Origin: Acidobacteriota bacterium
GTDB lineage: Bacteria > Acidobacteriota > UBA4820 > DSQY01
Reading direction: 5' to 3'
Length of the DNA: 64,000 nucleotides
Assembly (NCBI GenBank): GCA_049591295.1
Contig: JBAWEQ010000080.1
Coordinates: 2,238 to 66,237, forward strand
Each line of letters begins with the position of its first letter. Positions within the stretch are counted from its first letter, which is position 1. Positions 36,419-40,470 of the stretch are shown piece by piece. A program made the position numbers and the translations under genes. Below the pieces are notes generated by a model that saw only the letters and a program-made list of their open reading frames with translations, searched no databases and was not told the origin of the DNA.

Positions 36419-37420
36419 ATGACCGATGCCGCCGGTCCCGCCCCCCCGGAACTGAGCCTCCTGGTCCCCCTCTACAACGAGGAGGAGAACCTGGAACCCC
36501 TGCTGGAGCGCATCCAGGAGGAGATGGCCCGCCTGGGACGGAGCTACGAGGTCGTGCTCGTGGACGACGGCTCCCGAGACAGCACGGTGGCGCGGCTCAA
36601 GAGGGCCGTCGCCCAACGCCCCCACCTCCGCGTCGTCCTCCTCCGGCGCAATTCCGGCCAGACCGCCGCCCTCGCGGCGGCCATCGAGCACTCCCGGGGG
36701 GCCGTCCTCGTCCCGCTGGACGGTGACCTCCAGAACGATCCCGCCGACATCCGCAAGCTGGTTTCGAAGCTCGACGAGGGCTTCGACGTGGCCAGCGGCT
36801 GGCGCCGCCACCGCCGGGACCCCTTCTTCACGCGCATTCTGCCCTCGAAGATCGCCAACGGGCTCATCTCCCTCATCTCGGGAGTCAAACTGCACGACTA
36901 CGGCTGCACCCTCAAGGCCTACCGGCGCGAGGTGCTGGCCCCCGTGGTGCTGTTGGGAGAGATGCACCGCTTCATCCCCATCCTGGCCACGTGGCAGGGG
37001 GCGCGCGTGGCCGAGGTGGAGGTGACCCATCATCCCCGCGTGGCGGGCAAGAGCAAGTACGGCCTCGGCCGCACCCTCAAGGTCGTCCTCGACCTCCTGA
37101 CCATCAAGTTCATGGGCTCCTTCCTCACCAAGCCCATCTACGCCTTCGGCGGAGCGGGCGTGGGGCTCTGGCTCCTCTCGGCTGTATTGGCCGCCTACAC
37201 GCTTTGGCAGAAGCTGGCCTACGGCGTCTGGGTCCACAACAACCCCCTGCTCCTCGTGGCCATCTTCATCGCTCTCGTAGGGATGCAGCTCATCATGATG
37301 GGCCTTCTGGGCGAACTCCTCATCCGCATCTACTTCGCCAGCTCCGGAACAACCCCCTACGTCATCCGCGAGGTTCTCGAGTCGCCTGGGGGCGGTGGAG
37401 AGGTGGAGGCTGAAGGGTGA
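36419..37420 (+). CDS. GT2 polyprenyl-phosphate glycosyltransferase (ArnC/GtrB/DPM1-like) with C-terminal TM anchor
   Basis: LSLLVPLYNEEENL ... VVLVDDGSRD ... DGDLQNDP; the stop codon lies inside the first GGGTGAA repeat unit. Confidence 0.8.
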   Translation: MTDAAGPAPPELSLLVPLYNEEENLEPLLERIQEEMARLGRSYEVVLVDDGSRDSTVARLKRAVAQRPHLRVVLLRRNSGQTAALAAAIEHSRGAVLVPLDGDLQNDPADIRKLVSKLDEGFDVASGWRRHRRDPFFTRILPSKIANGLISLISGVKLHDYGCTLKAYRREVLAPVVLLGEMHRFIPILATWQGARVAEVEVTHHPRVAGKSKYGLGRTLKVVLDLLTIKFMGSFLTKPIYAFGGAGVGLWLLSAVLAAYTLWQKLAYGVWVHNNPLLLVAIFIALVGMQLIMMGLLGELLIRIYFASSGTTPYVIREVLESPGGGGEVEAEG

Positions 37421-37500
37421 AGGGTGAAGGGTGAAGGGTGAAGGGTGAAGGGTGAAGGGTGAAGGGTGAAGGGTGAAGGGTGGAGGGTGAAGGGTGAAGG
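37414..37500. repeat. Heptamer microsatellite (GGGTGAA) x12
   Basis: Perfect tandem array beginning within the last codons of the GT2 gene. Confidence 0.95.
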
Positions 37501-37560
37501 GTGAGGAGTAGAGAGCCCATGACCCATCGGCCAGCAGCCATGGATTCAAGAAGAATCATG

Positions 37561-37660
37561 GCGCTCCCGTGGGGCGGGCACCCCGGCCCGCCGCTCTCCC
37601 GCTCCGCTGAACCGTGGGGCGGGCGCCCCCGCCCGCCGCTCCCCGGCTCCAACCGGCGCG
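37561..37660. repeat. Pair of GC-rich palindromic REP units (GTGGGGCGGGCGCCCCCGCCCGCCGCTCCCC) upstream of the RAYT gene
   Basis: Each unit contains the inverted repeat GGCGGGCG / CGCCCGCC. Confidence 0.8.
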
Positions 37661-37724
37661 CCCCAAGAAGGCTATTTCCAATGAAAAGAAAGCCTCCTCA
37701 ACGAGGCGAAGCTTCACTCCGGCC

Positions 37725-38438
37725 ATGGAACGGCTGACGACCTATCGTCGCCGCCTACCCCATTTTCATGTGAGGGGTGCCCGCTACTCCCTCACGTTCC
37801 GCTTATCACCCCGGCAATCCCCGCCGCTATCCTCCAAAGAGTGCGAGGCCATGGTCTCTCATATCCACAAGATGGGCCCGGGCAAGGTTGAAGCCTTCGT
37901 CGTTATGCCCGACCACGTGCATCTTCTCTATTCCACCACGAGAGATGAGCATCTGATCAAGACATTACAATCCCTCAAGGGCTCGTCTTCCCATACCCTC
38001 ACCAGCCGCTTCGGCCGCCGGTCACCCATATGGCAGGATGAAACCTATGATCACCTCATCCGCAATGAGCCGGAATTCAGCACAGCTTGGCTCTACATAG
38101 AGGGCAATCCCGTTCGAAAAGGCCTCGTTAGCCGCATCACAGACTATCCCTGGTCCAGCGCTTGGAAGGGAGGGGGGGTCGCGGCCGAGGGCGGCCGCGC
38201 CACAGCCGAGACCGGCCGCGCCACAGCCGAGGGCGGCCGCGGTACGGAAGAGAATCATGATGAACTCGTGGGGCGGGCGCCCTCGCCCGCCGCTCCCCAT
38301 GGTCACCCCACCGTGGGGCGGGCGCCCTCGCCCGCCATCCCTCATCCCCAATCAGACCCGCAACCCCTTGATGGTCTCGCGGCCGAGGGCGGCCGCGCCA
38401 CAGCCGAGGGCGGCCGCGCCACGGGCGAAGGGAAATAG
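37725..38438 (+). CDS. REP-associated tyrosine transposase (RAYT; IS200/IS605 TnpA-like HUH enzyme) with a repeat-encoded C-terminal tail
   Basis: PDHVHLLY (HUH) and WQDETYDHLIRNEPEFSTAWLYIEGNPVRKGLVSRITDYPWSSAW align with E. coli YafM/TnpA-REP (PEHMHCIW ... WQPRFWEHAIRN ... YIYINPVKHGWV ... DWPFSTF). The reading frame then continues without a stop through REP copies (GRAPSPAAPHG..., AAEGGRATAEGGRA). Confidence 0.8.
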   Translation: MERLTTYRRRLPHFHVRGARYSLTFRLSPRQSPPLSSKECEAMVSHIHKMGPGKVEAFVVMPDHVHLLYSTTRDEHLIKTLQSLKGSSSHTLTSRFGRRSPIWQDETYDHLIRNEPEFSTAWLYIEGNPVRKGLVSRITDYPWSSAWKGGGVAAEGGRATAETGRATAEGGRGTEENHDELVGRAPSPAAPHGHPTVGRAPSPAIPHPQSDPQPLDGLAAEGGRATAEGGRATGEGK

Positions 38439-38441
38439 GCC

Positions 38442-40313
38442 ATGTGCGGCATAGCGGGCTTCGCGCTGAACCGGCCGGCTGATCGCGAGGCGCTCGCGGC
38501 CATGACGCGGAGCCTCGTGCACCGGGGCCCCGACGGGGAAGGCTTCTTCGTGGAAGAGGGCGTGGGGCTGGGCCACCGGCGCCTGGCCATCCTGGACCTT
38601 CCGGGCGGGGCCCAGCCCATGGCCAACGAGTCGGGCTCGGTGGTGGTGGTCTTCAACGGCGAGATCTACAACTTCCAGGCCCTGCGCGCGGAGCTGGAGG
38701 CCAAGGGACACCGCTTCGCCACGCGCTCGGACACGGAGGTGCTCGTGCACCTCTACGAGGAGGAGGGCGAGGATTTCCTCCCCAGGCTGAACGGCATCTT
38801 CGCCTTCGCCCTCTACGACCGCGAGCGCCGGAGCCTCCTGCTGGCGAGGGACCCGCTGGGAGTGAAGCCGCTCTATTATGCCGAGGTGCCGCGAGGGCTC
38901 CTGTTCGGCTCCGAGCTCAAGGCCCTGCGCGCCCATCCCGATTTCCCGACTGACCTGGACCTGGATGCCCTGAAGGCCTACTTCACCTGCGAATACGTCC
39001 CCGCTCCCCTCTCCATCTACCGTTCGGCCAGAAAGCTCCTGCCCGGCCACGCTCTGCTGGCGGGACCGGAGGGAATCCGGGTCCGTCCCTACTGGCACTG
39101 GGCCATTCCTCAGGAGCTTGGGCTGTCCCGGGCAGAAGCGGCGGAAAAACTCCGGGAAACGGTCCTGCGAAGCGTCAAGGGCCAGCTCATCTCCGACGTG
39201 CCCCTGGGGGTGTTCCTGAGCGGCGGCGTGGATTCCAGCATCGTCGCGGCCTGCATGGTGGAAGCGGGGGGGCGCGTGGAGAGCTTCTCCATCGGCTTCG
39301 AGGACCCCTCCTTCGACGAGAGCGCGTACGCCCGGACGGCGGCGCGGCACCTGGGTTGCGGCCACCACGAGCACACCTTCTCCGAGAAAGAGCTGCTGGC
39401 CGAGGTCCCGCGCGTACTCGGCCTTCTCGACGAACCCTTTGCCGACCCCTCGCTCTTTCCCACCGCCCTGCTCTCCCGCTTCGCCCGGCAGCGCGTGACC
39501 GTGGCCCTGGGCGGGGACGGCGGCGACGAGCTCTTCGCGGGATACCCGACCTACTGGGTGCACCACCGCTTCGGCCTCTACCGGTCCCTGCCGGGCTGGG
39601 CGCGACGCGCCGGGATGGCCGCGGCGGACCGCCTCCTGCCCGTCTCCCACGCGAACCTCACCCTGCCCTACAAGCTCCGCAAGTTCAGGGACGGGGCTGA
39701 GTATCCAATGCCGCTGCGGCACCACCTCTGGCTCGGCTCGTGGACCCCGGAGGGGCTCGCGCGGCTTATGCCAGGTGCCGGTGCCGTGGCCCTCTCCGAG
39801 AAGTGGATCCCGGACGCGCCGCAGAAGGATCCCGTCACCTCGGCCCAGTGGCTGGACCTCCACACCTATCTGCTGGAGGACATCCTCGCCAAGGTGGACA
39901 GGGCCAGCATGATGGCCTCCCTGGAGGCCCGCGTGCCCCTGCTCGATCCCGAGATCGTCCGCCTCGCCTTCGCCATGCCCCACGACTGGAAGCTCCGCGG
40001 GCGCGCGGGCAAGGCGGTCTTCAAGGAGGCCTTCGCCGGCCGCTTCCCGAAGGGCTTCCTCGACCGCCCCAAAAAGGGCTTCGGCATCCCCGTCGCCCGC
40101 TGGCTCACGGGCCCCCTGCGGCCCATGGCCGAGGAACTGCTCTCCGATGAGGTGCTGGGCAGGGTCCCCTTCCTCAAACCGGACGAACCCCGCCGCCTCT
40201 GGCGCGAACACCTCGCCCGCAAGGCCGACCATCGCAAACCCCTCTGGACCCTGCTGTGCTTTCTCGACTGGTGGAGGAGGGACCACAAGCGGATAGGAGG
40301 AAGGAGCGAATGA
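38442..40313 (+). CDS. asnB: Asparagine synthase (glutamine-hydrolysing) family amidotransferase
   Basis: MCGIAGF N-terminal nucleophile, SGGVDSS PP-loop; 623 aa. Confidence 0.9.
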   Translation: MCGIAGFALNRPADREALAAMTRSLVHRGPDGEGFFVEEGVGLGHRRLAILDLPGGAQPMANESGSVVVVFNGEIYNFQALRAELEAKGHRFATRSDTEVLVHLYEEEGEDFLPRLNGIFAFALYDRERRSLLLARDPLGVKPLYYAEVPRGLLFGSELKALRAHPDFPTDLDLDALKAYFTCEYVPAPLSIYRSARKLLPGHALLAGPEGIRVRPYWHWAIPQELGLSRAEAAEKLRETVLRSVKGQLISDVPLGVFLSGGVDSSIVAACMVEAGGRVESFSIGFEDPSFDESAYARTAARHLGCGHHEHTFSEKELLAEVPRVLGLLDEPFADPSLFPTALLSRFARQRVTVALGGDGGDELFAGYPTYWVHHRFGLYRSLPGWARRAGMAAADRLLPVSHANLTLPYKLRKFRDGAEYPMPLRHHLWLGSWTPEGLARLMPGAGAVALSEKWIPDAPQKDPVTSAQWLDLHTYLLEDILAKVDRASMMASLEARVPLLDPEIVRLAFAMPHDWKLRGRAGKAVFKEAFAGRFPKGFLDRPKKGFGIPVARWLTGPLRPMAEELLSDEVLGRVPFLKPDEPRRLWREHLARKADHRKPLWTLLCFLDWWRRDHKRIGGRSE

Positions 40314-40335
40314 GCAGCCCAAAGCGAGGAATCCC

Positions 40336-40470
40336 TTCCCGTGGGGCGGGCGCCCTCGCCCGCCGCTCCCCGACTCCGATCAACCGTGGGGCGGGCGCCC
40401 CCGCCCGCCGCTCCCCGACTCCGACCAACCGTGGGGCGGGCGCCCCCGCCCGCCACTCTTCCGCTCTGGA
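40336..40470. repeat. Three tandem 45-bp copies of the same GC-rich palindromic REP (BIME-like cluster)
   Basis: ccgtggggcgggcgccc(t/c)cgcccgccgctccccgactccga(t/c)caa x3. Confidence 0.85.

Follow-up and report, generated by a model that had tools for sequence, protein, structure and literature searches.

How is a transposase reading frame to be understood when it continues for 90 codons beyond its conserved domain, through the palindromic repeats that flank the gene? The question is raised by a stretch of 64,000 nucleotides from an Acidobacteriota bacterium (GCA_049591295.1, contig JBAWEQ010000080.1, positions 2,238–66,237 of the forward strand; hereafter the window), which carries a gene for a REP-associated tyrosine transposase (rayT; protein RAYT) among repetitive extragenic palindromes (REPs). 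A reading made before any database search, here the sequence-only reading, had left the choice between a recent REP invasion of the 3′ end of the gene and a genuine low-complexity C-terminal tail. Our analysis indicates that the locus is very probably a REPtron, that is, an ordinary RAYT among its own hairpins, in which the tail is a run-on through an older REP cluster after loss of the stop codon.

The region 37725–38165 is identified by profile, alignment and predicted fold as encoding a RAYT, a single-strand DNA nuclease of the TnpA_REP-type HUH-Y1 family, in agreement with the sequence-only reading. (i) The protein counted from ATG 37725 matched NCBIfam NF047646 (REP_Tyr_transpos) with 95.8 bits against a cut-off of 80 and a model coverage of 4–146/146, and its core matched Pfam Y1_Tnp with 35–37 bits against a cut-off of 23. 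(ii) The best solved relative by sequence was 4ER8, the E. coli TnpA_REP bound to REP (E = 1.6e-10), and the top Foldseek match in the Protein Data Bank for the AlphaFold2 model, whose core has a predicted local distance difference test score (pLDDT) of 85–95, was 4ER8_A (E = 2.3e-10, TM(target) 0.67). (iii) The motif PDHVHLL (H64-V-H66) pairs with PEHMHCI (HMH) of 4ER8, and Y124 and N128 align with the catalytic Y115 and with N119, which bears out the claimed alignment of the HUH and Tyr motifs with E. coli YafM; H64/H66, Y124, and N128 are invariant across 13 relatives. (iv) In E. coli, W94, Q95, E100, H101, and R104 contact the GTAG tag (PMC6006769, PMC3479197); their counterparts here are W103, Q104, D109, H110, and R113, and the E-to-D replacement at D109 is also found in RAYT subclasses 2.5 and 2.7 (PMC6006769). 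An identity as IS200 TnpA was rejected, with NF033573 reaching 27.6 bits against a cut-off of 55 and the locus being fixed and syntenic. The core is under purifying selection (ω of 0.26 and 0.16 against the orthologous loci L001 and L126, respectively), and its substitutions are biased to the third codon position (15/7/28 and 10/7/28 over the 3 positions in the same 2 comparisons).

The rayT ORF (open reading frame) occupies 37614–38438 of the plus strand, and its first in-frame stop is the TAG at 38436–38438. The W codon of the SSAW motif lies at 38163–38165; a stop overlooked directly after this motif was looked for and none was found, so the frame is open until 38438 and the roughly 90 additional residues foreseen by the sequence-only reading are exactly 90 codons (38166–38438). 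Position 37561, where that reading had begun the feature, is not the start of the gene and lies 8 nt before the first REP. The start is likely ATG 37725, which gives a protein of 237 aa, the length of NCBI record MGA9751204.1 (“MAG: transposase [Acidobacteriota bacterium]”; MAG, metagenome-assembled genome); the equivalent methionine, 5 residues ahead of YRRRLPH, starts all close RAYT relatives. The locus runs in the order REP1(+) ×2, rayT, REP2(−) ×3, a 22-nt linker, REP1(+) ×2, REP2(−) ×2, asnB, and REP1(+) ×3, with REP1 and REP2 denoting the 2 classes of unit described below:

37569–37592, plus strand: degenerate REP1, GTGG GGCGGGCA CCCC GGCCCGCC, the first of a 45-bp tandem pair upstream of rayT
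37614–37637, plus strand: REP1, GTGG GGCGGGCG CCCC CGCCCGCC, with a perfect 8-bp stem and a 4-nt loop; hairpin in single-stranded DNA (ssDNA) of −13.6 kcal/mol
37725–38165, plus strand: RAYT catalytic core, 147 aa, with the HUH at H64/H66, catalytic Y124, N128, and the WSSAW end
38166–38438, plus strand: open run-on of the rayT frame, 90 codons and TAG; REP hairpin units make up 159 of its 270 nt; predicted to be disordered
38180–38245, minus strand: REP2 array of 3 overlapping 24-nt units with a 21-nt period (5′ ends 38203, 38224, and 38245)
38246–38267, plus strand: conserved REP2–REP1 linker GGAAGAGAATCATGATGAACTC; its TGATGA (38258–38263) is the putative ancestral stop, here in frame +2
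38268–38291, plus strand: REP1 in the ORF tail, from palindrome search and hairpin fold
38313–38336, plus strand: REP1 in the ORF tail, 45 bp after the 38268 copy; a single copy stands here in the orthologs L001, L082, and L126
38378–38422, minus strand: REP2 array of 2 overlapping units (5′ ends 38401 and 38422), forming an inverted REP cluster with the REP1 pair
38436–38438, plus strand: first in-frame stop, TAG, 3 nt ahead of the asnB ATG at 38442
38442–40313, plus strand: asnB-like asparagine synthase, the downstream neighbour conserved at all orthologous loci
40341–40454, plus strand: 3 head-to-tail REP1 units after asnB with a 45-bp period; one copy at the orthologous site in L001 and L082

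REP1 (GTGGGGCGGGCGCCCNCGCCCGCC) is present in 7 copies, and its palindrome GTGGGGCGGGCGCCCCCGCCCGCC was found on the plus strand at 37569 and 37614, at 38268 and 38313, and at 40341, 40386, and 40431, with a 45-bp period inside each group (search with up to 2 mismatches to GTGGGGCGGGCGCCCCCGCCCGCC; 100 shuffles gave zero matches). The 2 upstream copies, the 2 in the 3′ part of the ORF and the 3 tandem copies after asnB that the sequence-only reading had listed are thus all in place. The general form of REP1 is GTGG GGCGGGCG CCCY CGCCCGCC; that of REP2, on the minus strand, is GTGG-CGCGGCCG-CCCT-CGGCCGCG. The 2 classes share tag, stem length and loop (GTGG, an 8-bp G/C stem and a CCCY loop, 24 nt in all) and agree at 20 of 24 positions; 2 compensatory base-pair flips that keep the stem account for the other 4. 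The tail was said to be translated from REP DNA and from an Ala-Glu-Gly-Gly-Arg repeat. The former part stands, and the peptides ATAEGGR and APSPAAPHGHPTVGR occur in the translation; the latter is not a separate low-complexity repeat, since the 21-bp “AEGGRAT” repeat (GGCGGCCGCGCCACAGCCGAG at 38190, 38211, 38388, and 38409, with a degenerate fifth unit at 38232) is an overlapping array of REP2 read on the minus strand. Its 21-nt period arises because the 3′ arm (CGGCTGTG) of one unit overlaps the GTGG of the next. In the array at 38180–38245, the inner units contain G-T wobbles and the last unit has GTAC in place of GTGG.

The REP units fold as ssDNA hairpins of about −12.7 to −14 kcal/mol (z of −2.1 to −3.3). 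A generic scan of the 64 kb for GTGG followed by an 8-bp stem recovered REP1 7 times (+) and REP2 4 times (−), all inside 37569–40456, on a background of 2 matches elsewhere and about 1.4 in shuffled sequence; the fifth REP2 unit, with its GTAC head, brings the total to 12 units, all within 3 kb of the RAYT. In a census of perfect 8-bp hairpins in the window, REP1 and REP2 were the only repeated ones. The gene is bracketed by inverted REPs, with REP1(+) at 37569 and 37614 upstream and REP2(−) at 38180–38245 downstream; further on, REP1(+) at 38268 and 38313 faces REP2(−) at 38378–38422 as an inverted doublet. The upstream and post-asnB arrays are head-to-tail only. Seven of the 12 units lie inside the annotated rayT ORF, in a stretch without coding signatures, and the same cluster is extragenic in the orthologous loci L121 and L122. 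A CRISPR array was rejected as an explanation of the repeats: the 21-nt segments between REP1 units are near-identical and there are at most 3 units per site, although no search for cas genes was made.

What became of the stop codon is seen from the orthologous loci. The arrangement GT2-rayT-asnB was found in 5 further loci (L001/L002, L082, L126, L121, and L122), the RAYT core identity to the window being 86% for L001 and L082, 66% for L121 and 57% for L122. A tblastn search with the RAYT core gave a single match in the window; together with the synteny, this points to a single-copy rayT, vertically inherited at a fixed locus. REP1-type (+) and REP2-type (−) units stand at the same sites in all syntenic loci. 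L121 and L122 share a compensatory G-C to A-T change in the REP1 stem, and the L121 REP2 has the same change. The statement that the RAYT is flanked by its own REPs is supported by these compensatory changes across orthologs and by the position and orientation of the units.

All relatives have WSSA as the closing motif of the catalytic core. The RAYT of L121 and of L122 stops at a TGA in the conserved linker (…GCCAC GGAG..A.. ATGAT…) directly after the first REP2 array, and a REP2-REP1-REP2 cluster follows past the stop, between rayT and asnB, reaching up to asnB. These 2 loci have the linker TGA in frame; for the window, L001, L082, and L126 it falls in frame +2. Alignment of the linkers places a 1-nt gap between REP2 and TGA in the window's lineage; the TGA is out of frame because there is one base fewer between it and REP2, and the frame consequently runs on through the REP cluster. 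In view of these orthologs, the REP cluster is old and the new event is the loss of the stop.

These comparisons suggest the following course of events. A single, vertically inherited RAYT would be embedded among substrate hairpins of 2 REP classes and, by analogy with TnpA_REP, would bind the GTGG tag and hairpin in ssDNA, cut, and rejoin; the REP arrays would grow and shrink by whole units, 21, 45, or 86 nt long. The linker TGA behind the first REP2 array would have terminated the ancestral protein, as is still the case in L121 and L122, until a 1-nt deletion in the linker moved the TGA out of frame. From then on, the frame would have been open through the pre-existing REP cluster as far as the TAG 3 nt before asnB, because G/C-only REP DNA has almost no stop codons, and the 90-residue tail would be a by-product.

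Numbers of REP units differ even between near-identical loci. In the tail, close relatives carry one REP1 against 2 in the window and, for L001, about 7–8 REP2-type 21-bp units (counted by eye) against 5. L122 has regular 65-nt REP1(+)/REP2(−) doublets repeating every 86 nt. A 45-bp REP1 period conserved across lineages was rejected, the period being 39 bp in L121 and part of an 86-bp composite unit in L122. In 4 assemblies with one and the same RAYT protein (L122–L125, P0006), the 86-bp REP1(+)/REP2(−) units number 1–3 upstream and 3–4 downstream, and L001 and L082 differ by 2 upstream REP1 units (1 against 3); either real copy-number polymorphism or assembly collapse would account for these differences. 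Across the loci compared, head-to-tail REP arrays have periods of 21, 30, 33, 36, 39, 45, 60 nt and others (examples are 37569/37614 and 40341–40454 in the window, 2375–2460 in L155 and 1044–1150 in L181). Fourteen of 17 distinct pairs of locus and period are multiples of 3, though the majority of the arrays lie outside known genes; this excess was recognised post hoc, in a small sample.

Entry of the frame into the 3′ REP is common in this family, of which the window, with 7 units, is an extreme. In a survey of 85 homologous loci, 80 of them from metagenomes, GC-rich 8-bp hairpins stood beside the gene in 73, many with GT[GA]G heads, and a common layout had a hairpin with such a head (+) upstream of the gene and an inverted copy of it downstream. 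The sequence-only reading had drawn attention to C-terminal length: the window's tail is indeed long, the median extension beyond the core being 7 aa among 84 complete ORFs, but it is not alone, as 19 of the 84 also hold at least one perfect hairpin, and in 44 more a perfect hairpin lies within 100 nt after the stop. In 3 distant RAYT homologs from metagenomes (L155, L206, and L138), the ORFs extend 127–389 aa past the core, through the hairpin and into downstream sequence; these may be further stop-loss fusions.

Among the alternatives, the one that survives best holds that selection maintains the tail, or at least the REP2-encoded part nearest the core, as a disordered C-terminal extension, for instance an autoinhibitory one, whose length is tuned by REP copy number. 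We consider it unlikely, although the reading of the tail as a by-product among the RAYT's own REPs also has points that weigh against it: (i) the frame has stayed open in 3 diverged lineages (the window, L001/L082, and L126) despite changes in REP copy number; (ii) all tail indels are multiples of 3, the 21- and 45-nt units preserving the frame; (iii) several relatives, the most distant at about 35% identity, share the frame of the proximal REP2 stretch, which gives AEGG[R/C]AT for L121 and L122 and TAEGGCAT* for L132 and L157; (iv) E. coli TnpA_REP has a functional autoinhibitory C-terminal extension (residues ~140–165) with a key Glu (PMC3479197), so that at least the proximal tail may have a role; and (v) no REP1 or REP2 was found outside the 3-kb locus, that is, in the other 61 kb of the window.

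The features of the tail itself nevertheless argue against selection as protein. Its ω values, 0.80 against L001 and 0.49 against L126, rest on just 54–75 codons, and its substitutions are even over the codon positions (7/8/10 and 8/5/11, respectively). There is no coding GC3 signature in the tail, where GC1/GC2/GC3 are 0.84/0.69/0.74, compared with a GC3 of 0.88–0.94 and a GC2 of 0.41–0.47 in host genes. The 291 nt from WSSA to asnB have 75% GC and contain 1, 0, and 3 stops in the 3 forward frames; the openness of the tail frame is expected from this GC-rich, stop-poor composition, and frames +0 and +1 are both open anyway. The inter-lineage indels are whole REP units of 21 or 45 nt and keep the frame automatically by virtue of those lengths, and 45-bp units likewise form non-coding arrays upstream of rayT and after asnB. 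A universal reading frame for the 3′ REP was rejected, since L137, L184, and L155 read the hairpin in another frame (QPRAAG, QPGAA). AlphaFold2 gives residues 150–237 a pLDDT of 46–63, with no secondary structure and no docking onto the core. Judged by these comparisons, the tail bears no sign of selection as protein. Nothing in ω, GC3, the open frames or the predicted disorder supports the genuine low-complexity tail of the sequence-only reading as a selected domain, and the tail is best read as a run-on, neither a domain nor a recent invasion. It is probably translated as a disordered extension, since no stop intervenes.

A stronger form of the selected extension, in which the RAYT, like that of E. 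coli, uses its tail for autoinhibition, the tail being encoded by its own substrate DNA and 21- or 45-nt REP steps setting the length of the inhibitor, strikes us as very unlikely. If it were true, REP array dynamics would be coupled to RAYT activity, and such selection would have left its mark in the excess of multiple-of-three periods.

A further possibility is that the palindromes belong to a hairpin type general to Acidobacteriota, such as a structural or RNA element, and that their proximity to the RAYT is incidental; this, too, appears very improbable. Many Acidobacteriota genomes do have the exact REP1 24-mer, which was found in at least 118 stretches and often in pairs of opposite orientation about 100 bp apart, and it also flanks RAYTs of only 32–35% identity; the lack of further units in the window points the same way. 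Against this, all 12 units in the 64 kb lie no more than 3 kb from the RAYT, their GT[AG]G tag and inverted flanking layout are typical of REPtrons, and the stems shift by compensatory pairs alongside RAYT divergence. Rfam had no family for the REPs, giving sub-threshold chance matches only (e.g., mir-4449), and no terminator-like T-run was found at them.

Some details of these dispersed copies may be added. Among the REP1 matches L003–L120, the 24-mer in Terriglobia genomes usually follows TGT and is succeeded by GCCTTTGA-type hexamer runs, (TTGAnn)n; REP1 there often forms convergent inverted pairs about 90–130 bp apart. The RAYTs at 32–35% identity to the window's are those of L160 and L178, flanked by the identical hairpin. 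In Thermoanaerobaculales GcC5-19 (L007 and L108), dispersed dimers of REP2(−), about 21 nt and REP1(+) resemble the 38245/38268 junction of the window. A tblastn search of the 118 REP1 stretches listed with the RAYT core found the syntenic loci only and one weak partial match (L033), a result that is uninformative on the association of RAYT and REP in those genomes.

A recent insertion of REPs into the 3′ end of the coding sequence, the RAYT gene having been longer or normal before, was one of the 2 explanations of the sequence-only reading and is barely plausible. The differing numbers of tail units among close relatives (2 REP1 against one, 5 REP2-type units against about 7–8) do point to recent gains and losses of units; yet L121 and L122, at 57–66% identity, already carry the REP2-linker-REP1-REP2 succession outside the ORF, after the stop codon, every relative has the same WSSA end of the core, and what has changed is the frame of the stop, not the presence of REPs. 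That the missing stop is a sequencing or assembly frameshift is scarcely credible: the contig comes from a MAG, and homopolymers and GC-rich repeats are error-prone, but the frame +2 TGA and the run-on to the TAG before asnB recur in the independent assemblies L001 (NCBI), L002 (ENA), L082, and L126.

Among known systems, the REPtron of E. coli K-12 (tnpA_REP, also yafM or rayT, with Y and Z2 REPs; 4ER8) is closest. Its HUH-Y1 core is the best match in sequence and fold, the residues binding the 5′ tetranucleotide are conserved, the single-copy gene has a fixed locus, and it is bracketed by inverted REPs of 2 related subfamilies, Y and Z2 (PMC6006769). It differs from the window in that (i) the tag is GTAG there and GTGG here, with E100 replaced by Asp; (ii) the stems here are perfect 8-bp G/C stems, whereas E. 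coli TnpA_REP needs a bulge; (iii) the window has head-to-tail arrays with 21- and 45-bp periods and an ORF through 7 REP units; and (iv) the host belongs to the phylum Acidobacteriota, and the E. coli C-terminal extension does not align with the window's tail. The REPIN-RAYT systems of Pseudomonas and Enterobacteria (Bertels and Rainey; PMC3116915, PMC5581495) likewise have a single-copy, vertically inherited RAYT with a core under purifying selection and inverted REP pairs beside the gene. By contrast, they have hundreds of dispersed REPINs, whereas the window has none outside the locus, and many units here are direct tandem repeats rather than inverted doublets.

Palindromic repeats within annotated ORFs are also known from intragenic GTAG/CGTC REPs and Rickettsia palindromic elements (Di Nocera et al. 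2013, PMC3733652); the same paper describes REPs overlapping ORF ends, REP clusters encoding 43–82 aa, and the GTGG tag variant of Opitutus terrae. Unlike those cases, the REPs here lie beyond the conserved domain, would have become “coding” through stop loss, and are in the RAYT ORF itself. IS200/IS605 TnpA shares the HUH-Y1 fold and the subterminal hairpins flanking the gene, but its Tyr motif is Y-x3-Q, against YIxxNP in the window's RAYT, and the locus here is fixed and syntenic, with no sign of the window's unit moving as a whole.

The locus provides an example of a REPtron from Acidobacteriota, a phylum with hardly any descriptions of RAYTs or REPs, and combines 2 REP classes linked by compensatory stem changes with arrays of variable copy number. 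It also carries a warning for annotation, namely that REP-encoded tails are not to be read as domains. Gene callers extend RAYTs both 3′ (237 aa here) and 5′ (275 and 305 aa in P0002 and P0089), because G/C-only REP clusters are open in most frames. The 5′ extensions of these orthologous RAYTs run through REP1, with 3 copies of it in P0089; the regions concerned are 10001–10117 in L001 and the sequence upstream of 1541 in L082, and the effect mirrors the 3′ run-on. Should the proximal REP-encoded tail work in the manner of the autoinhibitory one of E. coli, the clade would be a natural test of how RAYTs are restrained.

Some observations concern the immediate surroundings of rayT. The run-on frame and asnB share one frame, with only TAG GCC between them (38436–38444), and a purine-rich AAGGGA lies about 10 nt 5′ of the asnB ATG, within the end of the rayT ORF; translational coupling of rayT and asnB, or read-through, is conceivable from these 2 features. 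A scan for promoters and terminators found no sigma-70-like promoter, and no terminator within the REPs. The RAYT core (37725–38165) has 56.7% GC and a GC3 of 0.67, compared with 67–69% GC and a GC3 of 0.88–0.94 in its neighbours, an atypical composition for a gene that appears to be vertically inherited. Upstream, a microsatellite (37405–37510) in which the heptamer GAAGGGT is repeated about 14 times begins in the last codons of the glycosyltransferase gene (stop at 37418–37420) and ends about 60 nt before the first REP1; L001, L082, and L121 have none, and (GTGAGGA)n occupies the corresponding site in the ortholog L122 (1290–1325).

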